This document shows, piece after piece, positions 30,981 to 64,000 of a stretch of 64,000 bases of DNA; the first letter of the stretch is position 1, and every line of letters starts with the position of its first letter. This DNA comes from Nemertoderma westbladi (lineage: Eukaryota; Animalia; Xenacoelomorpha). The notes below the pieces were generated by a model that worked only from the letters and a program-made list of their open reading frames with translations, ran no database searches and was not told where the DNA came from. Where the stretch lies: assembly GCA_032718475.1 (NCBI GenBank), contig JAUCBJ010008128.1, positions 1-64,000 of the forward strand, given 5' to 3'. Made by a program: the position numbers and the translations under genes.

Positions 30981-32129
30981 ACAAACTAATCAGACAACTC
31001 AACAAATCTCTAAAAACACCCCCTCGAGCCCTACCTCCGAAAAGCGACGACGAAATAGTGGAAGCTCTCATCGCCGAACTACACCGTGACGTAGACCGAA
31101 CACCCAATGTCTCCCCCAAAAATGTACCTCAGGCCAACCTTACGAAACAACAACGAACTGTCCTCAAATCACTCAAGTCCAACACTAACATTCGTATCTG
31201 TAGGGGCGATAAATCTGGTAACACTGTAATCCTAGATACCAATGACTATAAAAATGAATGCTTACGTATTTTAAGAGACCCTAACACCTATACTACATTA
31301 ACTAAAGACCCTACTAATAAATACAGAACACAACTTGACGCACTACTACAAACCTGTAATATCGACACCAAACACACACTACACCCACTACTACTACCTA
31401 AACACCCTAAGATAGCGTACTTCTACTGCACTATTAAAGACCACAAGGACAGGGAATCATGGATAAACTGGGGCGACGGTAGACTCTTACCTAAGGGCAG
31501 ACCTATAGTTGCCACCATGGGCACCCTTCTACACCCACTTTCCCGCTTTGCTAACGACCTTCTAGAACCCGCGGTCACTCGCCTTGAGTCTAACTTGAAA
31601 GGGACAGACGACTTCCTATCAGCCCTCCCTAGAGATATTGGACCCGACTGCACTCTGATTTCACTGGACGTCGTAGACATGTACACTAACATTACCCATG
31701 ATGTAGGATGTAGGGCATTACGACAAGCACTCTCCGAGGACACGCACTTCACACAACAAACACTCATCTCATTAGATAACTTTATACTACTCGTCCGATT
31801 TATACTTGAACATAACTACTTCACTTTTGATAACACACTATACCTTCAATTACGAGGCGCAGCCATGGGTAGCAGTTTCTCGAAAAACTACGCTAGCCTA
31901 ACCATATCTAGATTAGAGATACACTTCCTCCACATCCTGAACAACCCCATTAATAACTACCTAAACGCGAGTGTATCAAACAGACTCCCTAACCCAACTA
32001 ACCTGGATACTAACACACCCGATCTGGATCTAACCACCCCTACCAACCCGAGCTCAACAACCACTGATCCCAACACTACTAACAAGACCAGATATAATCC
32101 TAGTATAACTCCCCTAAAATCTATCAAAA

Positions 32130-35100
32130 ACACCCCTGAAACTCACAGAACTACCATAACTACCCCCGTAACTAATACAACCACCCCTGAAACTAACATA
32201 ACTACCCCCAAAACTACCCTAACTATCCATGAAACTAACATAACTACTCCTGATATTAACATAACTACCCCTGAAACAACCATAAGTACCAACGAAACTA
32301 ACGGAACTAACATAACTACCCCTGATACTAACGAAACTAACATAACTACCCCTGAAACTACCATAAGTACCAACGAAACTAACGAAACTAACATAACTAC
32401 CCCTGATACTAACGAAACTAACATAACTACCCCTGAAACTAACATAACTACCCCTGGAACTAACATAACTACCCCTGGAACTAACAGAACTACCCCTGGA
32501 ACTAACATAACGACCCCTGGAACTAACATAACTACCCCTGGAACTAACAGAACTACCCCTGGAACTAACATAACTACCCCTGGAACTAACATAACTACCC
32601 CTGAAACTAACGAAACTAACATAAATACCCCTGATACTAACGAAACTAACATAACTACCCCTGAAACTACCATAAGTACCCATGAAACTAACATAACTAC
32701 CCCTGAAACTAACGAAACTAACATAACTACCCCTGATACTAACGAAACTAACATAACTACTCCTGAAACTACCATAAGTACCAACGAAACTAACATAACT
32801 ACCCCTGAAACTAACGTAACTAACATAACTACCCCTGGAACTAACATAACTACCCCTGAAACTAACGAAACTAACATAACTACCCCTGAAACTACCATAA
32901 GTACCAACGAAACTAACATAACTACCCCTGGAACTAACATAACTACCCCTGGAACTAACATAACTACCCCTGAAACTAACGAAACTAACATAACTACCCC
33001 TGAAACTACCATAAGTACCCACGAAACTAACATAACTACCCCTGAAACTACCATAAGTACCCATGAAACTAACATAACTACCCCTGAAACTAACGAAACT
33101 AACATAACTACCTCTGATACTAACTAAACTAACATAACTACCCCTGAAACTACCATAAGTACCCATGAAACTAACATAACTACCCCTGAAACTAACGAAA
33201 CTAACATAACTACCCCTGATACTAACGAAACTAACATAACTACTCCTGAAACTACCATAAGTACCAACGAAACTAACATAACTACCCCTGGAACTAACAT
33301 AACTACCCCTGTAACTAACATAACTACCCCTGGAACTAACGAAACTAACATAACTACCCCTGAAACTACCATAAGTACCAACAAAACTAACATAACTACC
33401 CCTGAAACTAACATAAGTACCCATGGTACTAACATAACTACCCCTGGAACTAACAGAACTACCCCTGGAACTAACAAAACTAACATAACTACTCCTGAAA
33501 CTACCATAAGTACCAACGAAACTAACATAACTACCCATGAAACTAACATAACTAACATAACTACCCCTGATACTAACGAAACTAACATAACTACTCCTGA
33601 AACTACCATAAGTACCAACGAAACTAATATAACTACCCCTGGAACTAACATAACTACCCCTGGAACTAACATAACTACCCCTGGAACTAACGAAACTAAC
33701 ATAACTACCCCTGAAACTACCATAAGTACCAACGAAACTAACATAACTACTCCTGATACTAACAAAACTAACATAACTACTCCTGAAACTACCATAAGTA
33801 CCAACGAAACTAACATAACTACCCCTGGAACTAACATAACTACCCCTGGAACTAACATAACTACCCCTGGAACTAACGAAACTAACATAACTACCCCTGA
33901 AACTACCATAAGTACCAACGAAACTAACATAACTACTCCTGAAACTACCATAAGTACCAACGAAACTAACATAACTACCCATGAAACTAACATAACTACC
34001 CCTGAAACTAACGAAACTAACATAACTACCCCTGAAACTACCATAAGTACCAACGAAACTAACATAACTACTCCTGAAACTACCATAAGTACCCATGAAA
34101 CTAACATAACTACCCCTGAAACTAACGAAACTAACATAACTACCCCTGATACTAACGAAACTAACATAACTACTCCTGAAACTACCATAAGTACCAACGA
34201 AACTAACATAACTACCCCTGGAACTAACATAACTACCCCTGGAACTAACGAAACTAACATAACTACCCCTGAAACTACCATAAGTACCAACGAAACTAAC
34301 ATAACTACCCCTGAAACTAACATAAGTACCCATGGTACTAACATAACTACCCCTGGAACTAACAGAACTACCCCTGGAACTAACAAAACTAACATAACTA
34401 CTCCTGAAACTACCATAAGTACCAACGAAACTAACATAACTACCCATGAAACTAACATAACTACCCCTGAAACTAACGAAACTAACATAACTACCCCTGA
34501 AACTACCATAAGTACCAACGAAACTAACATAACTACCCATGAAACTAACATAACTACCCATGAAACTAACGAAACTACCATAAGTACCCCTGAAACTAAC
34601 ATAACTACCCCTGGAACTAACATAACTACCCCTGGAACTAACAGAACTACCCCTGGAACTAACAAAACTACCCCTGAAACTACCATAAGTACCCATGATA
34701 CTAACATAACTACCCCTGAAACTAAAGAAACTAACATAACTACCCCTGGAACTAACAGAACTACCCCTGAAACTACCATAAGTACCCATGAAACTAACAT
34801 AACTATCCCTGAAACTACCATAAGTACCCATGAAACTAACATAACTAACTACCCCTGAAACTACCATAAGTACCCATGAAACTAACATAACTACCCCTGA
34901 AACAAACGAAACTAACATAACTACCCCTGAAACTACCATAAGTACCCATGAAACTAACATAACTACCCCTGATACTAACGAAACTAACATAACTACCCCT
35001 GAAACTACCATAAAGTACCCATGAAACTAACATAACTACCCCTGATACTAACGAAACTAACATAACTACCCCTGACACTACCATAACTACCCATGAAACT

Positions 35101-35210
35101 AACATAACTACCCCTGAAACTACCATAAGTACCCATGGTACTAACATAAATACCCCTGAAACTAACAAAACTAACATAACTACCACTGGAACTAATATAA
35201 CTACCCCGGA
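32130..35210 (+). repeat. Codon-phased minisatellite (21-bp ACTAACATAACTACCCCTGGA plus 9-bp ACTAACGAA variants; TNITTPE/G)
   Basis: Visible tandem structure lying between RT motifs GAAMGS and FVDD. Confidence 0.92.
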
Positions 35211-35966
35211 ACCTACCCCTTCCACCCCAGTCTGTAATAATATAACTACCTCAGTCACCTATAAAACCAAACTAGCACCAAACACTACACCTAACCCCGT
35301 TTTCTCAGATCCAATAATAACGACCCCAATATCTAACCTTACACCTCCAGATTCCAACATCAATATTACAGAAACTATCCTATCTATCTCAGATCCTAAT
35401 ATAACCATAACTAACGAAACTACCTCAACCTCGGATCCAAACATAACCCCCCCAGACGATAATACAACTTACCCTATTCCATTCTACAAACGGTTTGTTG
35501 ACGACAGCTATGGTATAGTACAACGTATATTAAGTGAACAGGACATTCACAACATACAGAAAATCACTAACTCCTCTTGTAACGACTTATTCCAAAACTC
35601 TCATATACAATTCACCATTGAATACTCCCACACATCACTCCCATTCCTTGACGTCCTGACACAGATTAACAACGAAACACTAACAACTACATTATACAAA
35701 AAACCAACTAGCAATAAACTCCCGATTCACTACAATAGCTTCCATGATAAGAAATTACTACTATCCGTAATTCGTAGCCAACTCCTACGCATCCACCGCA
35801 GATGTAGCGAGCCTAACGACTATACCAAACTCAGAGACGAATTCCTTGGCGAATGTCTACTCAGGCAGTACCCCCAGAACCTCCTTAACAAACTTAAACA
35901 TTGGACTCCCCAAACTAGACCTAAAGACACTAACTCGAAACCCACATTTTACCTAGGCACCAACAG

Positions 35967-36533
35967 ATGATGGGAATGTTCCAAAATACTGTACGTAGAT
36001 ACTCCAAAAACTACGATCTTGACATCAACATTAATGTAGTCACGAAGAATCCCATATCACTAGGACAAATACTAACCAAAAATAAAACTCAATCGCAAAC
36101 ACACATAAATAACACCACTAATGAGCCATGTAACTCTAGCCGCTGCCTTACATGCAAAACTATCACTAACATACAACAGACACCATGGGGTGAAAAGATA
36201 AAAGGACACTATACATGTAAGTCCCACACTGTATGTTACTTGGCCTGGTGCCACTGCCACCCTACTCTATACTACATAGGCCAAACGAGACAGAAACTTC
36301 ACGAACGCTTTAATGGACACCACAACAACATACGACACTACCCCTCACGAGCCAATGACGGAAAAACACATGAAGACATACTCCTAGCTAGGCACATATA
36401 CGGATGTGGTGTAGAAAATCTACGCGCCGCAACCATAAAACAATTCACAAACATACCCGAACTACTAGCGACGGAAGCTAACCTAATCTATACATACAAC
36501 CCCCCACTTAACGTAGCAAGACCAGCAATCTAA
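35967..36533 (+). CDS. GIY-YIG endonuclease domain of the PLE (frameshifted from RT)
   Basis: VCYLAWC...YYIGQT...ERFNGH...E..LI.....PLN. Confidence 0.85.
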   Translation: MMGMFQNTVRRYSKNYDLDININVVTKNPISLGQILTKNKTQSQTHINNTTNEPCNSSRCLTCKTITNIQQTPWGEKIKGHYTCKSHTVCYLAWCHCHPTLYYIGQTRQKLHERFNGHHNNIRHYPSRANDGKTHEDILLARHIYGCGVENLRAATIKQFTNIPELLATEANLIYTYNPPLNVARPAI

Positions 36534-44357: not shown

Positions 44358-46271
44358 ATGTCAGACACAACCCAATCACTGTCGGATAGTCTCTTAGAAA
44401 GTGTTAGAATGACTGTTAGACAGTGTCTTAAAAAGATCAATGACCCAGATCCAAGTCTAGAACATCCTAGATCCAAGTCTAAGTCACCTACTATTGTAAA
44501 AAAGGCCATCCCTACTGTAGTAGTGTCAGACCCTAGGCTAGTAGAACAACGTAGGTCTATCATCGGCACTCGGGCCCAAGTCAAGCGGGATCAAGAAGCA
44601 GCTGTCAAACAGCAGCAACATCCTAGCCAAGAACCTAGTTCTCAGCGGCCCGATAGCTCCAGTAGTTCGGATACTCCTGAGCGGACGCCCGAACGCGGAG
44701 CGAAGATGGCGGATACGGTTTATGATGAGTGGCCAACCTTTGAAGAATCAACCGACGCCACTTCTTCTCAAGTGGAAAGCGAAGTGGAAAGCGAATTAAC
44801 AGCAGCAGAGAAGCCGCGAACTAGAGACGCCATTGACATCTATCTGTCAGACTATCAGCGATTCCTAGGAGACGAAGAGTTGAGGAGACGACTGTCTGGA
44901 CTTCGCCCTAATAGTGAAGGAACCAAGCTTGTGTTGGACGCAATCGATGCGGAAATGTTAGCTGCGAACCAAGCTAAATTTGATGAACGACTCCGCCTCG
45001 TTAGAGTCCAAGAAGAACAAATAAAGAAAAAACAGATAGAGGACCGAAAGGCAGCAGCAGTAACGGCGGCAGAAGCAGAAGCAGAAAGAAAGGCAGTGGC
45101 GGCAGAAGCAGAATCAAAAAGAAAAGCAACGGCGGCAGAGGCAGAAGCAAAAAGAAAAGCAGCGGTGGCAGAAGCAGAACGGAGAGCGTCTGAGGAGACG
45201 ACCCAACTAGAGTTGGAAAATCTGCAAGAGACGCAAGACAACATAAATAAACAGTTAACTGCTAGTCACATGCAGATGATGAGTCGATTTACTCCCAAAC
45301 GCCAAGAATACACATCATCGGAAGAAGGCGAGACCACCGATCCTGAAGGCGGAGGAAATAGATCTCGTCTAAGCAGGCTTAGAAAAACATCTCACCATCA
45401 CAAATTGCCTGATTTGCCCCCAGCGGTTAGAAGACAACTAGCTAGCACAGACTTAGGTAGTACAGAACCTACAGAACAAATTATTCAGGTCAAAAGACTC
45501 CCTACAATAGTTGATGAGCCTGAAATAATTAGGCCTGTCGTTCCCAAAGCCACTCCTGTGCTAGAGACCCCTGTACTTCCAGAGCTTAACTCTAAATTCC
45601 CTCTACACAGTACTACACTGCCTGTACCCGGTAGAACAGTCCATGAGAATATCCCTGTCCTGGAAGCTGAGAGAGAAATCAAAGATTTGTCTCCCGTCGT
45701 CCCGCGTCAGCCCGCTACAATGTTGGCGACTCCCGCTTCGGCGGTCGAGTGGGTAGAGGAGGGACGGCGGGGGATGAATCTCCTGCTCGGACAGATGCAG
45801 GAGACTGTCCACCAACTTAAGGGAACAGTAAGGGAAGGTAGGGCCGAATTGCAAGAAGTGCAGCAAAGTATCGCTCTAGAACGCGACAAATTAGTCAATA
45901 TACAAAAAGCGATACCAATACCCCCTGTAACATTGTGTCAACCTGTTAGGTCTGAAGTATTACATGCACAAGGTGTGGAGCCTACACGCATCTATACTGC
46001 TAGTGAAGTAGAAACTCCTATAGCAAACCCTATTGAGGGTGATTATAAACCTGTTGTTAATGATATTCCCTATAGACCTGATAATAATCCGAGAAATTTA
46101 TATACCGATAATTCGATATTAAATAACACGATGGCCCAAGAAAGCTTTACGCGTCAGATGGCTAGAACAGAAGCCCGCCAAGCGGTCAAAGTGGGAGAAA
46201 TCGTCAAATTCAATGGAGATGAGATGAGATTCAATGCAGATAGGCTGATAAGGGGGGGGGGGGGGGGGTAA
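44358..46271 (+). pseudogene. Truncated BEL/Pao Gag of B2
   Basis: Clear homology to the B1 ORF N-terminus with an internal in-frame gap; the last ~14 codons are unrelated flank. Confidence 0.88.
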
Positions 46272-46904
46272 CTTCGAATAAAAGTTTACCCCTCTCCTGC
46301 CAGGTGAAATTCGATGCAAATTACATTACAAATTACACAAATTACATCAAAAATAAATCTCGGTTGGTTAGTTTTCCAAGCGGCGTCAAGAAGAGTTAAC
46401 TGGTTAATAGGTAGGTACTGCACTGCTGGCGCATCCTGGGGCTCGGCTGGCAGCTGGCGGACACCGGCTGTCACTCATCCTGGACCTGTCCTGCATTGTT
46501 TATTTGACATAAGGTAGCGGCAGCCACACTCTTTAAATCGGCAGTGATTTTTTATGTCCTTTTATTTGACTTTTTTGTCATTTTTTTTTTACGAATTATG
46601 CATAATGACTTTTGTTGTCCATTTAATGACTTTTATTTTTCTTTTAATGACTTTTTATGTATGTATTTCTTCAAACTGTCAGACTGCTGATTTCTGGACT
46701 GTCAGACAGTTGATTTCACTATGCCTGTCTGCCTGTGCCAAAACATTCCATGATTCCATGATTTATAGACTATGAGATAGATTTCCATATGCGCCTGTGG
46801 TAAAAAGACTCTATATTTAATAGTTTGTGGTTGTTGTCGATAATCGATTACCACATGACGTAGCAAAACACTCATTTTATAGCCAAAAACAATTACCAAT
46901 TGAT

Positions 46905-47400
46905 GGAAAGGAGCAGGTTAAGGCCGAGTTTTCTAACCAAAACAATAAACAGTCACTTTACCAAATCAGGGAAAGGAGCAGGTTACAGAGACGGGATTTT
47001 CTAACCAAAACAATAAACGATCACTTAACTAATTGAGGGAAAGGAGCAGGTTACAGAGGCGGGATTTTCTAACCAAAACAATAAACGATCACTTAACTTA
47101 TTGAGGGAAAGGAGCAGGTTACAGAGGCGGGATTTTCTAACCAAAACAATAAACGATCATTTAACTAATTGAGGGAAAGGGACAGGTTACAGAGGCGGAA
47201 TTTTCTAACCAAAACAATAAACGATCACTTAACTTATTGAGGAAAAGGAGCAGGTTACAGAGGCTGGATTTTCTAACCAAAACAATAAACGATCATTTAA
47301 CTAATTGAGGGAAAGGGACAGGTTACAGAGGCGGAATTTTCTAACCAAAACAATAAACGATCACTTAACTAATTGAGGGAAAGGATCAGGTTACAGAGAC
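46905..47400 (+). repeat. 68-bp tandem repeat (~7 copies)
   Basis: GAGGGAAAGGAGCAGGTTACAGAGGCGGGATTTTCTAACCAAAACAATAAACGATCACTTAACTAATT; unit starts at 47035, 47103, 47171 and onward. Confidence 0.92.
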
Positions 47401-48125
47401 GATAAAACTAATACAGTAATAGGCCTAAATTATGTGAAAGGTATATCCACATTTTAAAAATCCTGCAATCCAGTTTGGCCTATCAATTATTTAAAATTTA
47501 TTAGCACAACCGGTATGCCTACCTGCTACCATTACCGTATTTAAATGGTAGGCTACACAGTAGGCCTATAGCAGTACCGGTGCCGGTACCGGTATTAAAA
47601 TACAGAAATACCTGCTTTATACCTAAATCTGTACATACAATACAGCAAAATAGTGCTATATATACTAATACCGGTACTGATAGCCTGAGAGAACAGCAGT
47701 AGAGAAACCGGTAGCATGGAACCTAACATTAGACTTTTGGAGGACATAAAAAATAAAAAAAAAGGACAAAAAAAGGATTTAAACGGACAATAAAATTATG
47801 CGCTTTAAATCACTTAGCTTTAAGAAGGCCTACCTGTTTTCAGTCTGCATGCGTGTTGTGCACTTCTTACTGGTCCGCAATGCCTAATCTAATATCACAT
47901 ATGGATTATTCTCCATAGGAATACATTACATACGCACATACGCGTATGTGCATACGGATACGGCAAATGCATACGGATACGGATACGGCGAAAAGTTAAA
48001 CCCGTTATTATTGAGTTTCGTTTATTTTTTGGTTATAATAACGTGTCACTGTAACCTGCTTCTTTCACTAAATCTATATTTTTACATTGAGGCGGGATAC
48101 GGTTAATTCACCAAGATGGGATTTG

Positions 48126-48189
48126 AAAAGATTACGGTAAAGCAAAAAAAAAGGGGGGGGGGGCTTTTTTTGCTTTACCGTAATCTTTT
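48126..48189. repeat. Hairpin with ~25-bp stem and G-run loop
   Basis: AAAAGATTACGGTAAAGCAAAAAAA ... TTTTTTTGCTTTACCGTAATCTTTT. Confidence 0.85.
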
Positions 48190-48508
48190 TCGCTAGATTT
48201 GAATGGATTACAGGCTACAGTATAAGTAAGAAGGCCTTGGCTTACACATGCAACTTTTGTTACGGCAACAAGGTTCTTTGTATCGAGTTTATCAGAACAG
48301 TCTAAATTGTTTTGGTTTTGTGTTTGTATTACAGTATTAGATGGTTGTCCGTTACAGTCTTAATTATTTAGGAAATATTTTTTTTGAATAATATTTACTT
48401 TGAAATTCGGTCCATCAATATTATCCATACGGTACATTTTTCTATTAGTAATTGGAGTTCGAGCTAATGTGTATATTTTTTTATATATTTTTTTATTTTT
48501 TTATCTAG

Positions 48509-48691
48509 ATCAATATGTATCCAATTCCCCATATAAAGATTCGACAACATACACTATTGATCTACCGGAAGATGGTCATCAAGAGTCCGTTACATTAGAA
48601 CCCTTAGATTATCTGAGTAACAGCTACAACAACGTGTTTGAGATTCACTGCCCACCACAGCGCGATAACCTTAACAATAATTGTAATAGAG
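48509..48691 (+). CDS. Predicted upstream exon of the tyrosine recombinase gene
   Basis: Pyrimidine tract + TAG acceptor, open phase 1-1 (DQYVSNSP...NCNR), GTGAGT donor. Confidence 0.5.
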
Positions 48692-49251
48692 GTGAGTTAA
48701 GTTTTAAACCTGCATTACATTTCTGGGATGAGAGTGGGGGGACTCGACCACTGGACGCTCATCCCAATCTCGGTTAATTAATATCCCGTCTCAATGTTAA
48801 ATTCTAAATTTAGGGAAAGGATCAGGTTACAGTGGCACATTATTTTAACCAAAACAATAAACTAAATACATTAGAACAGGTTAGTACGATTAGGTTAGTA
48901 GGTTAGAACAGTCCCAACCCCCCCCCCCCCCCCCCCTATCTGGCCTTTCGAATGCGAATTTCATTATTTGATTATTGTTAAACCTGAAATAAACCTTTTA
49001 AACTTGTTATCCAATTATTATTTACATAAATAAATTGTATTTCTGAACAACTTTTACAATATTATTTGCATAAGCCTTCTGTTTGTAAAAGTAGCACTAG
49101 GGGGCGTTCACAATGGACTACTAGCAAACACCGGTACCACATTTACTGTATAAATATTTAGGTGGTAGGGTGGTGGTGGGGGTTCTGTCTATACCGTAGT
49201 TTATCTATCTATAGTAAAGTATACAAGGTGTCTTATTTATTTTATTTAAAG

Positions 49252-49404
49252 TAACCGAATTAGACGATCTGGAGGACATAATTGAAGAAGATGAAGATAA
49301 TGATGAAAATTCCGCCGAAGCCGATTATTCTACCGATGGCGATAATTCCACAGATACCGGAAGTGATAATTCCGCCGATGAAGATAATTACGGAAAACAA
49401 GGAG
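49252..49404 (+). CDS. Predicted acidic exon of the tyrosine recombinase gene
   Basis: AAG acceptor, phase 1-1, VTELDDLEDIIEEDEDNDENSAEADYSTDGD..., GTAGGC donor. Confidence 0.5.
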
Positions 49405-49517
49405 GTAGGCCTATATATCAATAAATATTTACTTAAATAGTTATAAACTTAAACTTGTTTTTTACCACTATTTCGCTTTATCTTTTATTAAAGAAATAAG
49501 CTACAAAAAAGTACAAA

Positions 49518-49553
<36 letters not shown>

Positions 49554-50009
49554 ACACCATTTTCGGACAACTCTTCGATTTATCACTCTTAGCGTTTCAC
49601 AATTGTTTGGTTTTGACTAAAATTTTGAATATAGGTGCCTAAGATGCTATTCTACATGATAGGTCAGAAAAAAATATTTTTTCGCTATTTAATATTATTT
49701 AATACTAGTTAACAATAAAAATAACTTGGTTGCGCTTAAAACCCTAAGGCTTTTACAGTTTTGAATCTAATCACATGAAAGTTTTTTTATATGATAGATC
49801 AAAGATGGGGCAACATAACTATCAGGCGAAATTTTGTGAAAATAGTAATTTCAAAAGGATTCCCTAAATGGAAATTTACATAACTTGAAAACTAAAAGAG
49901 CTATTAAATAGCGGTTTTCAGATTTGGAAACACCATTCAATGGTGCATTATAATATATCATAAAAAAATTCCGACATATTTTGGACCAAAATGGTGTACC
50001 CCCCCTTAA
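49518..50009. mobile_element. Kolobok-like MITE in a predicted intron
   Basis: TIRs GGGGGGTACACCATTTT / AAAATGGTGTACCCCCCC flanked by TTTA and TTAA; left G-run expanded to ~31. Confidence 0.65.
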
Positions 50010-50199
50010 GAATAAAATTTCGTATTACATGGGAAAAAAACGTAGAACATTTTTTTCAATAATATTCTCTCGACCCTTTATAAACCCTTTCTGGCACTCG
50101 GTAAATAAAATGCATCGAGAATAATGAAAAAAGATCTACTTTTTCCCCAACTAATAAATAATCAGTAAAATCAGTAAATCAGTAAATATTTTGGAGCGC

Positions 50200-50308
50200 A
50201 GGACAATTCGGTCCGGACAATTCGGTCCCGGATAATCGGACAATTCAGTCTCGGACAATTCAGTCCCATTAATTTTGTATTTTGGGACCGAATTGTCCGG
50301 GACCGAAT
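50200..50308. repeat. Small foldback of GGACAATTCGGTCC(C) units (DNA transposon terminus-like remnant)
   Basis: Four direct copies followed by inverted GGGACCGAATTGTCC copies. Confidence 0.6.
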
Positions 50309-50843
50309 TTAATTGGTACTACTGTACTATAGGCCTATAATGGTGAATGTTCTAGAACCTTAATAGATATTATTATATGGTAGCTAGTGTTTTTTTTGAA
50401 AATAAAAAAATTTCACTTTTTTTGTTAACATTATTATTTATGGTAGCTATTATGGTGTTTTTATGGAGGTTGTGAATTATTTACTAGCTAGTCTAGTAAT
50501 AGTATGTATTTAAAATGTTTAAAACTGATTTCTTTGTGTGTGTTATGAACTGTATGTGTTGTTGGTTGGTTAACAAGCCTAAATTATTATCCTAAATAAT
50601 TTAATCCAAAATTGCAACCCCGATCCCGAAAACGGGAACCCGGATTTCCTCTACATTTTGAATTTTTTTACATTTTCTACATCTTTCTACATTTTGGTGC
50701 AGACTTAGTACCTACAGTAGTGAGACAATTTTGTAATGAAACTCATAAAACCGCTGAATATTTTACTCCATTGTCTGGTTGCCCCCCCCCCCCCTCTCCC
50801 ATTCTCCCACACTTGTCAATACCGTGTCATTAAATTTTTTTAG

Positions 50844-52718
50844 GTGGAAATAGTAAAGAATGCGAATGTACCACCGAGAATATGGACAACAAAATGTAAA
50901 CGTAAACGTAATAAATTCCAATGTTCCCTATGTAAAAGAAAAATGCAGGACCTTCCCAGACACCTACGTTTAACTCATAATATCATTGCAAAGAACACTG
51001 TTAATTATCAAGTCGCTGTATCCCGATTGATGTCTTCTAGTAAAAAAATTAAGCGCCGGGTTTCTAAATGTGCCGTGGCAGGTTGCAACGCATATGTTAG
51101 GCGCTTAGCTTCCCACTTAACCCGACAGCACGGATTACCTCGGTATCTAGATGGGTTAACGACTTCACCCAAAAAAAACCCAGAACGCTTAAAATATCTG
51201 AGACACCCCGACAGATATAATTTCCCCGTGATGAAATGTCCGGTCAAGGTTGAGAAAGATATACCATTGCTTAATCAATTCCAAGACTTTCTGTGCTGCC
51301 CAATCTCACCTGTGCGTCAAAGTAATTTGCGTATGATGACGTTATTGTCTGTCAAGAAGTTTTTCACTTTGATGTGGGATGCGAAACCTATCTCCTCAGA
51401 TAAATTACGTATAACAGAAATGTTTGATACCGTCTATATATTCAAGGCCTACGAAGCCCTTACGAAAGAAATAGTACGAGGAGGTAAAATTCGACAACCT
51501 ACTACTATCCACGCTTATTTGCAGCGAATGTTAATATTCTACGACTTTGCCCTTGTTGACCCCAAAATGAAGTGTTTGATCGATCGCGCTGATATTCATG
51601 CAGCGGCAGCATGTATAAATCAGATAATGAAACACTGTAAACCAGATGTAAAGAAGCGGTTATTTGCAGTCCAAAAAGAAGCGTGTGAGAAAATGCCAGA
51701 CGCTGAAGAATTGCTTAGTTATCAAAAGGCACCATTTGCTTGTGACATTAAACGCGCTATAAAGCAATTACAAGATGGAAACTGGGATGATAATATTAAA
51801 TTGTGGCATATGCAGTCCTTTTTAATGTCAGTGATTGTTTACTGCAACGGATCCAGAGCCACAGCAGCCACAAATATGACTCTGAACGAATTTAGCAAAG
51901 CCACACCTTTAGATAATGATCCTGAAAAATTAACTATAACTGTTGACAGTCACAAAACTTGTAAATATATCGGTCCACAATACGTTGTAGTAAGCACAGA
52001 AATATTCAATCTTTTGAATCTCTGGGTAGAATGTGGCAGAGCGTTGTATTCCTTTCCATGCCAGTTGGAAAACGTATTTCTTTCCCAGAGCGGAGCGTGT
52101 TATATAAGTGTCACTCAACGACTACAATCTCTATGGAAATTAATTTTTCCACATTCTCATGCCAAAGCTGGTGCCACATCACTGCGGCATTCTGTTAGTT
52201 ATTGTAATCAGCGGTTCCCTGGTACTGAAGACAGTATAGAAAACGTATGTAAATCTATGGCACATTCACGACATACGCAAAAGAAAACCTATGACGCTGT
52301 TCTACGTCCCAGCAACGCCGGTCAAGCCTATAGACGTATTTTATGTGCTGCGCAATATGTTGCTGCGGACAAAGTTTCTCATGGGGATTATAATACCGAA
52401 CGTCAATATCGCAATGGACCTGGGGATGATAATAGTGAACTTCAATATCGCAATGAACCTGGGGATGATAATAGTGAACGTGACAATCAGGTTAAAATTT
52501 GGTCCGGTAAAAGGCGCAAGGTCTCTTGGACTGTGCAGGAGAACTGCACTCTGCGAGCCTTTTTCTCTGAAGAACTTAATGGCCGCCGAATAAACAGTGC
52601 AAAACGAGAGGAAGTCGCCCGTTTAATACCCACTAAGACTTTGCCTGAAATAATGCGCCGGATTATGGTAATGAAAAGACAATTAAAAAATAATCCGGAA
52701 CGGTTTACTTGTAATTAG
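50844..52718 (+). CDS. Tyrosine recombinase with two N-terminal C2H2 fingers and a C-terminal Myb/SANT-like motif (terminal exon)
   Basis: CSLC...HLRLTH, CAVAGC...HLTRQH; catalytic pattern NGSR, HKT, TSLRH, MAHS...TY; KRRKVSWTVQEN...; begins at a TTTTTTTAG acceptor rather than an ATG. Confidence 0.82.
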   Translation: MEIVKNANVPPRIWTTKCKRKRNKFQCSLCKRKMQDLPRHLRLTHNIIAKNTVNYQVAVSRLMSSSKKIKRRVSKCAVAGCNAYVRRLASHLTRQHGLPRYLDGLTTSPKKNPERLKYLRHPDRYNFPVMKCPVKVEKDIPLLNQFQDFLCCPISPVRQSNLRMMTLLSVKKFFTLMWDAKPISSDKLRITEMFDTVYIFKAYEALTKEIVRGGKIRQPTTIHAYLQRMLIFYDFALVDPKMKCLIDRADIHAAAACINQIMKHCKPDVKKRLFAVQKEACEKMPDAEELLSYQKAPFACDIKRAIKQLQDGNWDDNIKLWHMQSFLMSVIVYCNGSRATAATNMTLNEFSKATPLDNDPEKLTITVDSHKTCKYIGPQYVVVSTEIFNLLNLWVECGRALYSFPCQLENVFLSQSGACYISVTQRLQSLWKLIFPHSHAKAGATSLRHSVSYCNQRFPGTEDSIENVCKSMAHSRHTQKKTYDAVLRPSNAGQAYRRILCAAQYVAADKVSHGDYNTERQYRNGPGDDNSELQYRNEPGDDNSERDNQVKIWSGKRRKVSWTVQENCTLRAFFSEELNGRRINSAKREEVARLIPTKTLPEIMRRIMVMKRQLKNNPERFTCN

Positions 52719-55700
52719 TTTTATATTTCAATCAAACTGTTTGAACTCGGAACGGATGGTTTACTTGTAATTATTTTTCATATTTCAATCAAACTGTTTG
52801 AACTCGGAACGGATGGTTTACTTGTAATTAGTTTTATATTTCAATCAAACTGTCAAACTGTTTGAACTCGGAACGGATGGTTTACTTGTAATTATTTTTT
52901 ATATTTCAATCAAACTGTTTGAACTCGGAACGGATGGTTTACTTGTAATTATTTTTTATATTTCAATCAAACTGTTTGAACTCGGAACGGATGGTTTACT
53001 TGTAATTATTTTTCATATTTCAATCAAACTGTTTGAACTCGGAACGGATGGTTTACTTGTAATTAGTTTTATATTTCAATCAAACTGTTTGAACTCGGAA
53101 CGGATGGTTTACTTGTAATTATTTTTTATATTTCAATCAAACTGTTTGAACTCGGAACGGATGGTTTACTTGTAATTATTTTTTATATTTCAATCAATCT
53201 GTTTGAACTCGGAACGGATGGTTTACTTGTAATTATTTTTCATATTTCAATCAAACTGTTTGAACTCGGAACGGATGGTTTACTTGTAATTATTTTTTAT
53301 ATTTCAATCAAACTGTTTGAACTCGGAACGGATGGTTTACTTGTAATTATTTTTCATATTTCAATCAAACTGTTTGAACTCGGAACGGATGGTTTACTTG
53401 TAATTAGTTTTATATTTCAATCAAACTGTTTGAACTCGGAACGGATGGTTTACTTGTAATTATTTTTCATATTTCAATCAAACTGTTTGAACTCGGAACG
53501 GATGGTTTACTTGTAATTAGTTTTATATTTCAATCAAACTGTCAAACTGTTTGAACTCGGAACGGATGGTTTACTTGTAATTATTTTTTATATTTCAATC
53601 AAACTGTTTGAACTCGGAACGGATGGTTTACTTGTAATTATTTTTCATATTTCAATCAAACTGTTTGAACTCGGAACGGATGGTTTACTTGTAATTAGTT
53701 TTATATTTCAATCAAACTGTCAAACTGTTTGAACTCGGAACGGATGGTTTACTTGTAATTAGTTTTATATTTCAATCAAACTGTCAAACTGTTTGAACTC
53801 GGAACGGATGGTTTACTTGTAATTATTTTTTATATTTCAATCAAACTGTCAAACTGTTTGAACTCGGAACGGATGGTTTACTTGTAATTATTTTTTATAT
53901 TTCAATCAAACTGTTTGAACTCGGAACGGATGGTTTACTTGTAATTATTTTTTATATTTCAATCAAACTGTTTGAACTCGGAACGGATGGTTTACTTGTA
54001 ATTATTTTTTATATTTCAATCAAACTGTCAAACTGTTTGAACTCGGAACGGATGGTTTACTTGTAATTATTTTTTATATTTCAATCAAACTGTCAAACTG
54101 TTTGAACTCGGAACGGATGGTTTACTTGTAATTATTTTTTATATTTCAATCAAACTGTCAAACTGTTTGAACTCGGAACGGATGGTTTACTTGTAATTAT
54201 TTTTTATATTTCAATCAAACTGTTTGAACTCGGAACGGATGGTTTACTTGTAATTATTTTTTATATTTCAATCAAACTGTTTGAACTCGGAACGGATGGT
54301 TTACTTGTAATTATTTTTTATATTTCAATCAAACTGTCAAACTGTTTGAACTCGGAACGGATGGTTTACTTGTAATTATTTTTTATATTTCAATCAAACT
54401 GTTTGAACTCGGAACGGATGGTTTACTTGTAATTATTTTTTATATTTCAATCAAACTGTCAAACTGTTTGAACTCGGAACGGATGGTTTACTTGTAATTA
54501 TTTTTCATATTTCAATCAAACTGTTTGAACTCGGAACGGATGGTTTACTTGTAATTATTTTTTATATTTCAATCAAACTGTTTGAACTCGGAACGGATGG
54601 TTTACTTGTAATTATTTTTTATATTTCAATCAAACTGTCAAACTGTTTGAACTCGGAACGGATGGTTTACTTGTAATTATTTTTCATATTTCAATCAAAC
54701 TGTTTGAACTCGGAACGGATGGTTTACTTGTAATTATTTTTTATATTTCAATCAAACTGTCAAACTGTTTGAACTCGGAACGGATGGTTTACTTGTAATT
54801 ATTTTTTATATTTCAATCAAACTGTCAAACTGTTTGAACTCGGAACGGATGGTTTACTTGTAATTATTTTTTATATTTCAATCAAACTGTTTGAACTCGG
54901 AACGGATGGTTTACTTGTAATTACTTTTTATATTTCAATCAAACTGTCAAACTGTTTGAACTCGGAACGGATGGTTTACTTGTAATTATTTTTTATATTT
55001 CAATCAAACTGTTTGAACTCGGAACGGATGGTTTACTTGTAATTATTTTTTATATTTCAATCAAACTGTTTGAACTCGGAACGGATGGTTTACTTGTAAT
55101 TATTTTTTATATTTCAATCAAACTGTCAAACTGTTTGAACTCGGAACGGATGGTTTACTTGTAATTATTTTTTATATTTCAATCAAACTGTTTGAACTCG
55201 GAACGGATGGTTTACTTGTAATTATTTTTTATATTTCAATCAAACTGTCAAACTGTTTGAACTCGGAACGGATGGTTTACTTGTAATTATTTTTCATATT
55301 TCAATCAAACTGTTTGAACTCGGAACGGATGGTTTACTTGTAATTATTTTTCATATTTCAATCAAACTGTTTGAACTCGGAACGGATGGTTTACTTGTAA
55401 TTATTTTTTATATTTCAATCAAACTGTCAAACTGTTTGAACTCGGAACGGATGGTTTACTTGTAATTATTTTTCATATTTCAATCAAACTGTTTGAACTC
55501 GGAACGGATGGTTTACTTGTAATTATTTTTTATATTTCAATCAAACTGTCAAACTGTTTGAACTCGGAACGGATGGTTTACTTGTAATTATTTTTTATAT
55601 TCAATCAAACTGTCAAACTGTTTGAACTCGGAACGGATGGTTTACTTGTAATTATTTTTTATATTTCAATCAAACTGTTTGAACTCGGAACGGATGGTTT

Positions 55701-58700
55701 ACTTGTAATTATTTTTTATATTTCAATCAAACTGTTTGAACTCGGAACGGATGGTTTACTTGTAATTATTTTTTATATTTCAATCAAACTGTTTGAACTC
55801 GGAACGGATGGTTTACTTGTAATTATTTTTTATATTTCAATCAAACTGTTTGAACTCGGAACGGATGGTTTACTTGTAATTATTTTTTATATTTCAATCA
55901 AACTGTTTGAACTCGGAACGGATGGTTTACTTGTAATTACTTTTTATATTTCAATCAAACTGTCAAACTGTTTGAACTCGGAACGGATGGTTTACTTGTA
56001 ATTATTTTTTATATTTCAATCAAACTGTTTGAACTCGGAACGGATGGTTTACTTGTAATTATTTTTTATATTTCAATCAAACTGTTTGAACTCGGAACGG
56101 ATGGTTTACTTGTAATTATTTTTTATATTTCAATCAAACTGTCAAACTGTTTGAACTCGGAACGGATGGTTTACTTGTAATTATTTTTCATATTTCAATC
56201 AAACTGTTTGAACTCGGAACGGATGGTTTACTTGTAATTATTTTTTATATTTCAATCAAACTGTCAAACTGTTTGAACTCGGAACGGATGGTTTACTTGT
56301 AATTATTTTTTATATTTCAATCAAACTGTCAAACTGTTTGAACTCGGAACGGATGGTTTACTTGTAATTATTTTTTATATTTCAATCAAACTGTTTGAAC
56401 TCGGAACGGATGGTTTACTTGTAATTACTTTTTATATTTCAATCAAACTGTCAAACTGTTTGAACTCGGAACGGATGGTTTACTTGTAATTATTTTTTAT
56501 ATTTCAATCAAACTGTTTGAACTCGGAACGGATGGTTTACTTGTAATTATTTTTTATATTTCAATCAAACTGTCAAACTGTTTGAACTCGGAACGGATGG
56601 TTTACTTGTAATTATTTTTTATATTTCAATCAAACTGTTTGAACTCGGAACGGATGGTTTACTTGTAATTATTTTTTATATTTCAATCAAACTGTCAAAC
56701 TGTTTGAACTCGGAACGGATGGTTTACTTGTAATTATTTTTTATATTTCAATCAAACTGTTTGAACTCGGAACGGATGGTTTACTTGTAATTACTTTTTA
56801 TATTTCAATCAAACTGTCAAACTGTTTGAACTCGGAACGGATGGTTTACTTGTAATTATTTTTTATATTTCAATCAAACTGTTTGAACTCGGAACGGATG
56901 GTTTACTTGTAATTATTTTTTATATTTCAATCAAACTGTTTGAACTCGGAACGGATGGTTTACTTGTAATTATTTTTTATATTTCAATCAAACTGTTTGA
57001 ACTCGGAACGGATGGTTTACTTGTAATTATTTTTTATATTTCAATCAAACTGTTTGAACTCGGAACGGATGGTTTACTTGTAATTATTTTTTATATTTCA
57101 ATCAAACTGTTTGAACTCGGAACGGATGGTTTACTTGTAATTATTTTTTATATTTCAATCAAACTGTCAAACTGTTTGAACTCGGAACGGATGGTTTACT
57201 TGTAATTATTTTTTATATTTCAATCAAACTGTTTGAACTCGGAACGGATGGTTTACTTGTAATTATTTTTTATATTTCAATCAAACTGTCAAACTGTTTG
57301 AACTCGGAACGGATGGTTTACTTGTAATTATTTTTTATATTTCAATCAAACTGTTTGAACTCGGAACGGATGGTTTACTTGTAATTATTTTTTATATTTC
57401 AATCAAACTGTTTGAACTCGGAACGGATGGTTTACTTGTAATTATTTTTTATATTTCAATCAAACTGTTTGAACTCGGAACGGATGGTTTACTTGTAATT
57501 ATTTTTTATATTTCAATCAAACTGTTTGAACTCGGAACGGATGGTTTACTTGTAATTATTTTTTATATTTCAATCAAACTGTTTGAACTCGGAACGGATG
57601 GTTTACTTGTAATTATTTTTTATATTTCAATCAAACTGTTTGAACTCGGAACGGATGGTTTACTTGTAATTATTTTTTATATTTCAATCAAACTGTTTGA
57701 ACTCGGAACGGATGGTTTACTTGTAATTATTTTTTATATTTCAATCAAACTGTTTGAACTCGGAACGGATGGTTTACTTGTAATTATTTTTTATATTTCA
57801 ATCAAACTGTTTGAACTCGGAACGGATGGTTTACTTGTAATTATTTTTTATATTTCAATCAAACTGTTTGAACTCGGAACGGATGGTTTACTTGTAATTA
57901 TTTTTTATATTTCAATCAAACTGTTTGAACTCGGAACGGATGGTTTACTTGTAATTATTTTTTATATTTCAATCAAACTGTTTGAACTCGGAACGGATGG
58001 TTTACTTGTAATTATTTTTTATATTTCAATCAAACTGTCAAACTGTTTGAACTCGGAACGGATGGTTTACTTGTAATTATTTTTTATATTTCAATCAAAC
58101 TGTCAAACTGTTTGAACTCGGAACGGATGGTTTACTTGTAATTATTTTTTATATTTCAATCAAACTGTTTGAACTCGGAACGGATGGTTTACTTGTAATT
58201 ATTTTTTATATTTCAATCAAACTGTTTGAACTCGGAACGGATGGTTTACTTGTAATTATTTTTTATATTTCAATCAAACTGTTTGAACTCGGAACGGATG
58301 GTTTACTTGTAATTATTTTTTTTATTTCAATCAAACTGTTTGAACTCGGAACGGATGGTTTACTTGTAATTATTTTTTATATTTCAATCAAACTGTTTGA
58401 ACTCGGAACGGATGGTTTACTTGTAATTATTTTTTATATTTCAATCAAACTGTCAAACTGTTTGAACTCGGAACGGATGGTTTACTTGTAATTATTTTTT
58501 ATATTTCAATCAAACTGTTTGAACTCGGAACGGATGGTTTACTTGTAATTATTTTTTATATTTCAATCAAACTGTTTGAACTCGGAACGGATGGTTTACT
58601 TGTAATTATTTTTTATATTTCAATCAAACTGTCAAACTGTTTGAACTCGGAACGGATGGTTTACTTGTAATTATTTTTTTTATTTCAATCAAACTGTTTG

Positions 58701-61700
58701 AACTCGGAACGGATGGTTTACTTGTAATTATTTTTTATATTTCAATCAAACTGTTTGAACTCGGAACGGATGGTTTACTTGTAATTATTTTTTATATTTC
58801 AATCAAACTGTCAAACTGTTTGAACTCGGAACGGATGGTTTACTTGTAATTATTTTTTATATTTCAATCAAACTGTTTGAACTCGGAACGGATGGTTTAC
58901 TTGTAATTATTTTTTATATTTCAATCAAACTGTTTGAACTCGGAACGGATGGTTTACTTGTAATTATTTTTTATATTTCAATCAAACTGTTTGAACTCGG
59001 AACGGATGGTTTACTTGTAATTATTTTTTATATTTCAATCAAACTGTTTGAACTCGGAACGGATGGTTTACTTGTAATTATTTTTTATATTTCAATCAAA
59101 CTGTTTGAACTCGGAACGGATGGTTTACTTGTAATTATTTTTTATATTTCAATCAAACTGTTTGAACTCGGAACGGATGGTTTACTTGTAATTATTTTTT
59201 ATATTTCAATCAAACTGTTTGAACTCGGAACGGATGGTTTACTTGTAATTATTTTTTATATTTCAATCAATACTGTTTGAACTCGGAACGGATGGTTTAC
59301 TTGTAATTATTTTTTATATTTCAATCAAACTGTCAAACTGTTTGAACTCGGAACGGATGGTTTACTTGTAATTATTTTTTTTATTTCAATCAAACTGTTT
59401 GAACTCGGAACGGATGGTTTACTTGTAATTATTTTTTATATTTCAATCAAACTGTTTGAACTCGGAACGGATGGTTTACTTGTAATTATTTTTTATATTT
59501 CAATCAAACTGTCAAACTGTTTGAACTCGGAACGGATGGTTTACTTGTAATTATTTTTTATATTTCAATCAAACTGTTTGAACTCGGAACGGATGGTTTA
59601 CTTGTAATTATTTTTTATATTTCAATCAAACTGTTTGAACTCGGAACGGATGGTTTACTTGTAATTATTTTTTATATTTCAATCAAACTGTTTGAACTCG
59701 GAACGGATGGTTTACTTGTAATTATTTTTTATATTTCAATCAAACTGTCAAACTGTTTGAACTCGGAACGGATGGTTTACTTGTAATTATTTTTTATATT
59801 TCAATCAAACTGTTTGAACTCGGAACGGATGGTTTACTTGTAATTATTTTTTATATTTCAATCAAACTGTTTGAACTCGGAACGGATGGTTTACTTGTAA
59901 TTATTTTTTATATTTCAATCAAACTGTTTGAACTCGGAACGGATGGTTTACTTGTAATTATTTTTTATATTTCAATCAAACTGTTTGAACTCGGAACGGA
60001 TGGTTTACTTGTAATTATTTTTTATATTTCAATCAAACTGTTTGAACTCGGAACGGATGGTTTACTTGTAATTATTTTTTATATTTCAATCAAACTGTTT
60101 GAACTCGGAACGGATGGTTTACTTGTAATTATTTTTTATATTTCAATCAAACTGTTTGAACTCGGAACGGATGGTTTACTTGTAATTATTTTTTATATTT
60201 CAATCAAACTGTTTGAACTCGGAACGGATGGTTTACTTGTAATTATTTTTTATATTTCAATCAAACTGTTTGAACTCGGAACGGATGGTTTACTTGTAAT
60301 TATTTTTTATATTTCAATCAAACTGTTTGAACTCGGAACGGATGGTTTACTTGTAATTATTTTTTATATTTCAATCAAACTGTTTGAACTCGGAACGGAT
60401 GGTTTACTTGTAATTATTTTTTATATTTCAATCAAACTGTTTGAACTCGGAACGGATGGTTTACTTGTAATTATTTTTTATATTTCAATCAAACTGTTTG
60501 AACTCGGAACGGATGGTTTACTTGTAATTATTTTTTATATTTCAATCAAACTGTTTGAACTCGGAACGGATGGTTTACTTGTAATTATTTTTTATATTTC
60601 AATCAAACTGTTTGAACTCGGAACGGATGGTTTACTTGTAATTATTTTTTATATTTCAATCAAACTGTTTGAACTCGGAACGGATGGTTTACTTGTAATT
60701 ATTTTTTTTATTTCAATCAAACTGTTTGAACTCGGAACGGATGGTTTACTTGTAATTATTTTTTATATTTCAATCAAACTGTTTGAACTCGGAACGGATG
60801 GTTTACTTGTAATTATTTTTTATATTTCAATCAAACTGTCAAACTGTTTGAACTCGGAACGGATGGTTTACTTGTAATTATTTTTTATATTTCAATCAAA
60901 CTGTTTGAACTCGGAACGGATGGTTTACTTGTAATTATTTTTTATATTTCAATCAAACTGTTTGAACTCGGAACGGATGGTTTACTTGTAATTATTTTTT
61001 ATATTTCAATCAAACTGTTTGAACTCGGAACGGATGGTTTACTTGTAATTATTTTTTATATTTCAATCAAACTGTCAAACTGTTTGAACTCGGAACGGAT
61101 GGTTTACTTGTAATTATTTTTTATATTTCAATCAAACTGTTTGAACTCGGAACGGATGGTTTACTTGTAATTATTTTTTATATTTCAATCAAACTGTTTG
61201 AACTCGGAACGGATGGTTTACTTGTAATTATTTTTTATATTTCAATCAAACTGTTTGAACTCGGAACGGATGGTTTACTTGTAATTATTTTTTATATTTC
61301 AATCAAACTGTTTGAACTCGGAACGGATGGTTTACTTGTAATTATTTTTTATATTTCAATCAAACTGTTTGAACTCGGAACGGATGGTTTACTTGTAATT
61401 ATTTTTTATATTTCAATCAAACTGTTTGAACTCGGAACGGATGGTTTACTTGTAATTATTTTTTATATTTCAATCAAACTGTTTGAACTCGGAACGGATG
61501 GTTTACTTGTAATTATTTTTTATATTTCAATCAAACTGTTTGAACTCGGAACGGATGGTTTACTTGTAATTATTTTTTATATTTCAATCAAACTGTTTGA
61601 ACTCGGAACGGATGGTTTACTTGTAATTATTTTTTATATTTCAATCAATCTGTTTGAACTCGGAACGGATGGTTTACTTGTAATTATTTTTTATATTTCA

Positions 61701-64000
61701 ATCAAACTGTTTGAACTCGGAACGGATGGTTTACTTGTAATTATTTTTTATATTTCAATCAAACTGTTTGAACTCGGAACGGATGGTTTACTTGTAATTA
61801 TTTTTTATATTTCAATCAAACTGTTTGAACTCGGAACGGATGGTTTACTTGTAATTATTTTTTATATTTCAATCAAACTGTTTGAACTCGGAACGGATGG
61901 TTTACTTGTAATTATTTTTTATATTTCAATCAAACTGTTTGAACTCGGAACGGATGGTTTACTTGTAATTATTTTTTATATTTCAATCAAACTGTTTGAA
62001 CTCGGAACGGATGGTTTACTTGTAATTATTTTTTTTATTTCAATCAAACTTTTTGAACTCGGAACGGATGGTTTACTTGTAATTATTTTTTATATTTCAA
62101 TCAAACTGTTTGAACTCGGAACGGATGGTTTACTTGTAATTATTTTTTATATTTCAATCAAACTGTCAAACTGTTTGAACTCGGAACGGATGGTTTACTT
62201 GTAATTATTTTTTATATTTCAATCAAACTGTCAAACTGTTTGAACTCGGAACGGATGGTTTACTTGTAATTATTTTTTATATTTCAATCAAACTGTTTGA
62301 ACTCGGAACGGATGGTTTACTTGTAATTATTTTTTATATTTCAATCAAACTGTTTGAACTCGGAACGGATGGTTTACTTGTAATTATTTTTTATATTTCA
62401 ATCAAACTGTTTGAACTCGGAACGGATGGTTTACTTGTAATTATTTTTTTTATTTCAATCAAACTGTTTGAACTCGGAACGGATGGTTTACTTGTAATTA
62501 TTTTTTATATTTCAATCAAACTGTTTGAACTCGGAACGGATGGTTTACTTGTAATTATTTTTTATATTTCAATCAAACTGTCAAACTGTTTGAACTCGGA
62601 ACGGATGGTTTACTTGTAATTATTTCTTATATTTCAATCAAACTGTTTGAACTCGGAACGGATGGTTTACTTGTAATTATTTTTTATATTTCAATCAATC
62701 TGTTTGAACTCGGAACGGATGGTTTACTTGTAATTATTTTTTATATTTCAATCAAACTGTCAAACTGTTTGAACTCGGAACGGATGGTTTACTTGTAATT
62801 ATTTTTTTTATTTCAATCAAACTGTTTGAACTCGGAACGGATGGTTTACTTGTAATTATTTTTTATATTTCAATCAAACTGTTTGAACTCGGAACGGATG
62901 GTTTACTTGTAATTATTTTTTATATTTCAATCAAACTGTCAAACTGTTTGAACTCGGAACGGATGGTTTACTTGTAATTATTTTTTATATTTCAATCAAA
63001 CTGTTTGAACTCGGAACGGATGGTTTACTTGTAATTATTTTTTATATTTCAATCAAACTGTTTGAACTCGGAACGGATGGTTTACTTGTAATTATTTTTT
63101 ATACTTCAATCAAACTGTTTGAACTCGGAACGGATGGTTTACTTGTAATTATTTTTTATATTTCAATCAAACTGTTTGAACTCGGAACGGATGGTTTACT
63201 TGTAATTATTTTTTATATTTCAATCAAACTGTTTGAACTCGGAACGGATGGTTTACTTGTAATTATTTTTTATATTTCAATCAAACTGTTTGAACTCGTA
63301 ACGGATGGTTTACTTGTAATTATTTTTTATATTTCAATCAAACTGTTTGAACTCGGAACGGATGGTTTACTTGTAATTATTTTTTATATTTCAATCAATC
63401 TGTTTGAACTCGGAACGGATGGTTTACTTGTAATTATTTTTTATATTTCAATCAAACTGTCAAACTGTTTGAACTCGGAACGGATGGTTTACTTGTAATT
63501 ATTTTTTTTATTTCAATCAAACTGTTTGAACTCGGAACGGATGGTTTACTTGTAATTATTTTTTATATTTCAATCAAACTGTTTGAACTCGGAACGGATG
63601 GTTTACTTGTAATTATTTTTTATATTTCAATCAAACTGTCAAACTGTTTGAACTCGGAACGGATGGTTTACTTGTAATTATTTTTTATATTTCAATCAAA
63701 CTGTTTGAACTCGGAACGGATGGTTTACTTGTAATTATTTTTTATATTTCAATCAAACTGTTTGAACTCGGAACGGATGGTTTACTTGTAATTATTTTTT
63801 ATATTTCAATCAAACTGTTTGAACTCGGAACGGATGGTTTACTTGTAATTATTTTTTATATTTCAATCAAACTGTTTGAACTCGGAACGGATGGTTTACT
63901 TGTAATTATTTTTTATATTTCAATCAATCTGTTTGAACTCGGAACGGATGGTTTACTTGTAATTATTTTTTATATTTCAATCAAACTGTTTGAACTCGGA
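52696..64000 (+). repeat. 57-bp satellite array (65-bp variant with TCAAACTG duplicated), roughly 190 copies, running off the window
   Basis: GGAACGGATGGTTTACTTGTAATTATTTTTTATATTTCAATCAAACTGTTTGAACTC in near-perfect tandem. Confidence 0.98.

Follow-up and report, generated by a model that had tools for sequence, protein, structure and literature searches.

In the 64,000-nucleotide stretch of Nemertoderma westbladi DNA analysed here (positions 1 to 64,000 of contig JAUCBJ010008128.1, assembly GCA_032718475.1; hereafter the window), a tyrosine recombinase gene runs directly into a satellite array whose first monomer encodes the end of the gene. Most likely the satellite is young and remains joined to the end of the gene from which it originated, the duplication of gene ends being a known route to satellite DNA. 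Specifically, we consider it reasonably probable that the satellite arose in place by duplication of the gene's own end and was then shaped by ordinary repeat turnover. The surrounding window is repeat-rich eukaryotic DNA with open reading frames (ORFs) of BEL-like and other retroelements. The exons and domains of the gene and the array lie on the forward strand; no strand is assigned to the palindrome. Genome-wide statements refer to the contigs of four short-read runs (X1, X2, X3 and X5); X1 and X3 derive from one sample, which is possibly the source of the assembly, and X2 comes from an independent study.

The array occupies 52696-64000 and runs past the end of the window. Splitting it at a fixed anchor gave 191 complete monomers, mostly of 57 bp, over more than 11.3 kb, and Tandem Repeats Finder reported 191.9 copies of period 57 with 94% matches over 52702-64000; it is therefore a satellite in the accepted sense of a long, homogeneous head-to-tail array. 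An internal 8-bp duplication lengthens 46 of the 191 monomers to 64-65 bp each. Four monomer motifs have no exact copy to the left of the array (1-52690), and the monomer was not found in viral contigs. A first-pass annotation had proposed that an array of more than 11 kb begins within the stop-codon region of the recombinase and that the final codons, ERFTCN and the stop, are a slightly variant first monomer lacking the letters ATGG. Both proposals hold. Identity between gene and monomer starts at 52696, with two additional matching letters at 52692-52693, and translation starting at 52695 gives P-E-R-F-T-C-N-TAG, the stop codon occupying 52716-52718. The first monomer (52696-52747), which is 52 bp long, lacks ATGG and contains the gene's TAG, encodes the last seven codons and the stop of the recombinase gene.

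The junction between gene and array is supported outside the assembly by contigs of X1 and X3. The X1 contig (279 nt) spans 52452-52722 and continues for 8 further monomer letters, and the X3 contig (271 nt), which has three differences in common with X2, reaches 52722, 27 letters into the array, a length below the 31-letter bar of the tool. Two sequence variants of the gene both continue into monomer 1. Within the array, the variants are ordered. ATGG is absent from monomer 1 alone among the 191. The stop codon TAG of the gene differs by one letter from the commoner sequence, most monomers having T at that position; seven monomers carry TAG, all of them among monomers 1-19. A second sequence variant is restricted to monomers 2-59. 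The mean distance to the commonest monomer is 1.35 events in the first 20 monomers and 0.1-0.7 in later ones, divergence from the commonest unit thus peaking beside the gene. This gradient fits growth of the array outward from the gene.

The satellite seems to be limited to one or a few arrays and not dispersed, as few boundaries were found in the four runs. Contigs partly unlike the segment 50690-52830 numbered 8 of 525 in X1, 13 of 137 in X2, 4 of 30 in X3 and 2 of 3 in X5, and 26 loose ends fell on this segment. Inclusion of the 1.1 kb of dispersed repeats upstream raised the number to 1209, so scattered repeats are detectable by this measure. Besides the gene, the 19 of 26 loose ends that were listed give four distinct junctions of the satellite with foreign DNA, one on its left side (52764, in X1 and X3) and three on its right (52766 in X5, 52787 in X2 and X3, and 52800 in X3). 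In X1-X3, contig depth summed over the satellite exceeds that of the gene by two to three orders of magnitude; since summed contig depth does not equal copy number, we take this only as a rough hint at hundreds to thousands of units.

The last of these junctions bears on how the array began. There, a contig of X3 exits the monomer after 52800, which corresponds to 52691 in the repeat unit. The exit is thus in phase with the gene junction, which is the pattern that local tandem duplication leaves at both ends. The first 10 unlike letters of the contig complement 52780-52789 at 9 of 10 positions, and the loose end completes a 31-bp palindrome (15+1+15) with 14 of 15 pairs matched. As reconstructed from the window and this single contig, the palindrome has its left arm, its centre and the inner part of its right arm at 52723-52743, beginning 4 nt after the stop, and the monomers keep only its inner 6-bp dyad whole. 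The X3 flank beyond 52800 is therefore a candidate for the original 3' flank of the gene.

Based on these observations, we propose the following model. The ancestral locus would have consisted of the stop codon, 4 nt, the 31-bp palindrome and the flank. A break or slip within the right arm of the palindrome could have been rejoined to 52692, creating the first repeat as a tandem duplication of about 52 bp that comprised the last codons, the stop and 3' flank; a break at this place would leave the monomers with only the inner 6-bp dyad. Later, the short ATGG and 8-bp duplications and the loss of the TAG letter would have spread through the array, with monomer 1 remaining in its old form. Expansion would have proceeded away from the gene by slippage and unequal exchange, with no need for the recombinase. 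Local tandem duplication has also occurred elsewhere in the same exon, in the form of an in-frame 39-bp repeat of 2.6 copies in the linker (52382-52481), which appears in X5 as a closed 69-nt contig as well.

The structure of the recombinase itself also bears on this model, which supposes that the array grew from a gene end that was complete. Immediately before the repeat unit lies a predicted complete three-helix domain of the homeodomain/Myb-like kind (52533-52691; model pLDDT 83.8), formed by residues 531-583, counted from the first ATG at 50943, and its last helix ends at 52691. Its best structural matches are homeodomains, at a middling Z of 7.7 (rmsd 2.3, 58 residues aligned). We compared the query with 67 of its longer relatives in an alignment of 68 proteins. 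After the last three-helix domain the query has 7 residues, and the relatives have a median of 3 and no more than 19 in 64 of 67. After the catalytic Tyr it has 141 residues; the relatives range from 106 to 274, with a median of 186 and 160 or fewer in 21 of 67. About 23 of the 67 end after a single terminal repeat, by a count made by eye in which about 14 relatives appear to have been shortened by gene calling. The C-terminus of the query, as modelled, would thus be normal for a one-repeat member of the family, with loss of a second repeat possible. The first-pass annotation had named, as the outcome that would speak against its proposals, a genome-wide satellite unlinked to the recombinase, together with homologues showing a longer C-terminus that the array had truncated. 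What we find is a satellite that does not look dispersed and a tail of normal length, with the reservation that a second domain may be missing. Of the two origins offered by that annotation, the 3' end of the gene as seed fits best, given the polarity of the variants, the few boundaries, the in-phase far junction and the complete terminal domain; the array as a structural end or target of the element has little to support it.

Several observations weigh against an origin in place. The contigs of the four runs showed no copy of this gene end that lacks the array, and the contig of the independent run X2 stops at 52690, so that X2 neither shows nor excludes the junction. Old variants at the edge of an array are expected whatever its origin. 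The four foreign junctions were counted among the 19 of 26 loose ends listed, and rare variants tend to be lost from contigs. A single contig of one run shows the in-phase junction, with only 30 unlike letters seen, in which neither the monomer content nor whether this is the far end of the present array is visible; it is one of three right-hand types among the loose ends listed. By a hand estimate, the chance that one of three junctions gives such a phase match is about 0.24 for the 5-position ambiguous window and about 0.05 for the exact position, and fold-back repair at a later break also yields inverted repeats. Finally, about 30 of the 67 relatives have two terminal three-helix repeats (by eye), and in its initial Trp and its length the repeat of the query is like the first type, which means that a second repeat may have been lost.

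That last point is at the centre of the alternative in which a pre-existing satellite spread or was rearranged into the gene, cut it after the first three-helix domain and supplied a stop by chance. Such a stop would have been easily had, as every monomer type gives one within 7-16 codons. The second left junction, where the satellite meets foreign DNA at 52764 in both X1 and X3, would also suit a satellite that existed elsewhere, as would a weak monomer-like match at 46637-46686, whose score was reached by 5 of 1000 shuffles with two queries tried. However, given that some 23 of the 67 relatives naturally end after one repeat, that 21 have 160 or fewer residues after the Tyr against the 141 of the query, that the boundaries are few, and that an incoming satellite leaves the in-phase, palindrome-completing junction unexplained, we regard this alternative as unlikely, albeit one to be taken seriously. 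The match at 46637-46686 is on the same strand and is to a 65-bp monomer variant. The surrounding sequence is a separate element, whose inverted ends are near 46532-46589 and 47755-47809 and which holds an array of a 68-bp unit at 46898-47398; the match was also considered as the left end of the recombinase element and set aside, being weak and inside this other element.

The main exon (50844-52718) encodes two C2H2-like fingers, a tyrosine recombinase core, a linker, the three-helix domain, the seven codons shared with the satellite and the TAG. Its frame comprises 624 open codons, 591 residues from the first ATG, and is open from a predicted splice acceptor at 50843; the fingers, found by pattern match, are at 50922-50978 and 51069-51131. 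The catalytic region (51855-52292) contains R305, K338, R415, H441 and Y450, all invariant in the 68 aligned proteins. In place of the usual first catalytic His, the query has Ser and 52 of 67 relatives have Thr. The AlphaFold model of the protein has a pLDDT of 80.6, and its best Foldseek matches are XerA, XerH and Cre (E 5e-5 to 6e-4). Its residues and its predicted structure thus identify the gene product as a tyrosine recombinase, in which the catalytic set is intact and the fold is that of Xer and Cre. The recombinase is accompanied by neither a reverse transcriptase nor viral genes, the neighbouring ORFs belonging to separate BEL-like and other retroelements. The gene appears to belong to a Crypton-like element of the CryptonV type, or to a settled copy descended from such an element, and is predicted to be spliced; among described groups, CryptonV comes closest.

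Pfam and PDB sequence searches with the query gave no match; Phage_integrase was matched by 23 of the 68 alignment members, the query not among them. Word-based protein searches were fruitless with words of normal or shorter length and also when the alignment was used. There are 168 relatives at E up to 0.001, and the 150 listed share 20-35% identity with the query. Among 20 that were looked up, five have names in their clusters: four of these point to an organism (two octocorals, a hydrozoan and a crinoid, the cnidarian genera being Paramuricea, Dendronephthya and Clytia), and the fifth bears the label XerD. As proteins, the relatives are annotated just as uncharacterized or XerD-like. The cluster of one relative has 12 members spread over many contigs. 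No close relative was found in metagenome contigs, and a search of viral and prokaryote contigs with one relative subfamily found none.

With an intact catalytic set and a predicted Xer/Cre fold, the recombinase might itself have made or amplified the array, by aberrant recombination or through small circles, if the 31-bp palindrome, read as 12+7+12, were its own site. Sites of this enzyme class have arms of 11-13 bp around 6-8 bp (PMC3212892), and an active Crypton rearranges DNA at its target sites (PMC9977147). We find this idea rather doubtful, a little more so than that of an incoming satellite, since the outer right arm is missing from the monomers, which are thus not whole recombinase sites, and the breakpoint proposed above lies off the edge of any 6-8 bp spacer. 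What is left in the monomer is a dyad at chance level. The first-pass annotation had drawn attention to the dyad TCAAAC-T-GTTTGA, overlapping TTCAA-N9-TTGAA, in each monomer. Both inverted motifs are indeed present (at 52732-52744 and 52727-52745 in the first unit, without a common axis), though "each" was slightly too strong, there being 185 exact copies of the dyad in the array. Instead of arms of 11-13 bp and a spacer of 6-8 bp in every unit, the monomers offer no more than an arm of 6 bp around a 1-bp spacer and another, offset, of 5 bp, the full palindrome being reconstructed at the far junction alone. A perfect arm of at least 6 bp arose in 257 of 1000 dinucleotide shuffles, and one with a second arm of at least 5 in 150 of 1000. 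We therefore dropped the dyad as a sign of function.

The loci of relatives, a small and distant sample, point the same way. Four metagenome loci of one relative subfamily, effectively two families, have neither an array nor a palindrome at the stop codon, one of them (L001) with a flank of only 152 bp. Two others of the four, L003 (3472-3838) and L004 (2971-3331), which represent one family, carry a 10-bp motif seven times, about 490-830 bp after the apparent stop, and also a hairpin downstream of the gene. This 3' flanking region is a candidate binding region that lends the enzyme-driven account some support; repeated 3' motifs do occur in the recombinase family, though not in satellite form. 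Hence the suggestion that the array is a structural end of such elements finds little support, all four loci being free of an array at the stop, and nor does the view of the monomers as reiterated binding or recombination sites fare better, with the dyad at chance level and the satellite missing from the left flank of the gene. Nothing yet shows that the recombinase drove the expansion.

Alternatively, a repeat-seeking CryptonV-type element could have inserted into an existing satellite, its right end merging with the target. Some CryptonV families are specific for microsatellites (PMC8869645, citing Kapitonov and Jurka 2012), and recombinase-bearing nimaviruses target telomeric repeats (PMC10871703). 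Nevertheless, we judge such an insertion improbable. A microsatellite target would be expected on both flanks; here a 57-bp unit stands on the right only, the left side of the gene being free of satellite for 52 kb, and the end of the element would have to fall inside coding sequence. The predicted introns are full of high-copy repeats, which suggests a long-resident copy. Lastly, an assembly error at the junction is scarcely credible, for although repeat edges are error-prone, the only bridging runs come from one sample that may be the source of the assembly and X2 stops at 52690, contigs of X1 and X3, representing two variants of the gene sequence, cross into monomer 1 and the variant gradient is unbroken from the junction.

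Upstream of the main exon we predict three further coding exons, which have AG/GT boundaries and join in frame: exon A (48509-48691); exon B (49252-49404), which encodes an acidic segment; and exon C (50703-50719), of 17 nt. With the main exon as D, the predicted spliced product A-B-C-D is stop-free over at least 741 residues and has two C2H2-like fingers, as do 31 of the 67 relatives. A start exon, expected upstream of exon A, was not found. Repeats of very high depth occur in the predicted intron that precedes exon C, and inverted copies of a repeat akin to the 68-bp unit lie at 48016-48122 and 48761-48866, on either side of predicted exon A. Rfam gave no match anywhere in 46000-53500. Runs X1, X2 and X3 also contain a second gene form, in which 50773-51470 (698 bp) is missing and replaced by 12 letters and the upstream flank differs, the segment 50709-50772 being common to both forms. 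In X2 and X3, this internally deleted form is the one of greater contig depth, and X3 also contains frameshifted variants, which suggests that there are a few copies of the gene, some of them decayed; copy number is low.

Some side observations concern the short-read contigs and the rest of the window. Among the satellite junctions at 52764 and 52787 (X1, X2, X3), one carries the motif CTGATGA, which we take to be the hammerhead core of Penelope-like elements, and the other opens with a run of T; possibly a retroelement has inserted into the array. A 9-nt form of this motif is absent from the window. In X5, the 39-bp coding repeat and the 57-bp monomer occur as closed contigs without the gene, which could be explained by low coverage or by a larger 39-bp array, and we did not use this run as evidence for an unlinked satellite. 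Far to the left, a long retroelement-like ORF (28919-36533) has a frame that runs through 21-bp coding tandem repeats for about 3.8 kb. The short ORF that follows it has no Pfam match and looks like a GIY-YIG nuclease.

The birthplaces of satellites are rarely preserved; in this case, the gene that probably gave rise to the satellite is intact and still joined to it. With the oldest variants lying in order beside the gene and a candidate for the original flank in hand, the founding duplication is directly checkable. If our reading is true, tyrosine-recombinase elements join the known sources of satellite DNA, and the palindrome reconstructed here offers a testable DNA site for a widespread and almost unstudied family of animal recombinases. 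If the recombinase played no part, the locus is a clean example of a known process; if it did drive the expansion, a satellite would have been built by an enzyme whose gene overlaps it.

Several known systems resemble this one in part. Like CryptonV, it has a stand-alone animal tyrosine recombinase adjoining tandem repeats, and the named relatives are cnidarian and crinoid. Whereas CryptonV targets microsatellites, the unit here is of 57 bp, on one side, and overlaps the ORF. Cryptons in general (PMC3212892), including the active CryptonF-1_cRei (PMC9977147), are similar in combining a tyrosine recombinase with the lack of a reverse transcriptase, and no long terminal repeats were seen here either; terminal direct repeats of 4-6 bp and a left end of the element were not found, and the flanking domains differ, being C2H2-like fingers and a three-helix domain and not GCR1_C or DUF3504. 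According to one preprint, the centromeric satellites of chordates infrequently host transposons with a tyrosine recombinase. The literature searched, which lay outside Repbase Reports, most subscription journals and supplements, yielded no description of a satellite that stems from a Crypton-like element, and the text of a review on transposon-derived satellites (PMC9659126) does not mention Crypton or recombinase. Helentron/HINE elements (PMC9659126) likewise have an array tied to a mobile element and a palindrome near the array, but those arrays are short and scattered over many loci, and the present one exceeds 11 kb with few boundaries. The closest parallel to the origin that we favour, duplication of the gene's own end, is given by transposon 3' ends and ORFs, which are documented sources of satellites (PMC9659126): PisTR-A from the 3' untranslated region (UTR) of Ogre, 18HT from HeT-A/TART, a cetacean satellite from the 3' end of L1, and HinfI from the ORF2/3' UTR of CR1. 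As in these cases, a short piece from the 3' end of an element appears as the monomer of a long array. In contrast to them, the likely source here is a tyrosine recombinase gene that is intact and still attached to its satellite, and the repeated unit includes the stop codon.

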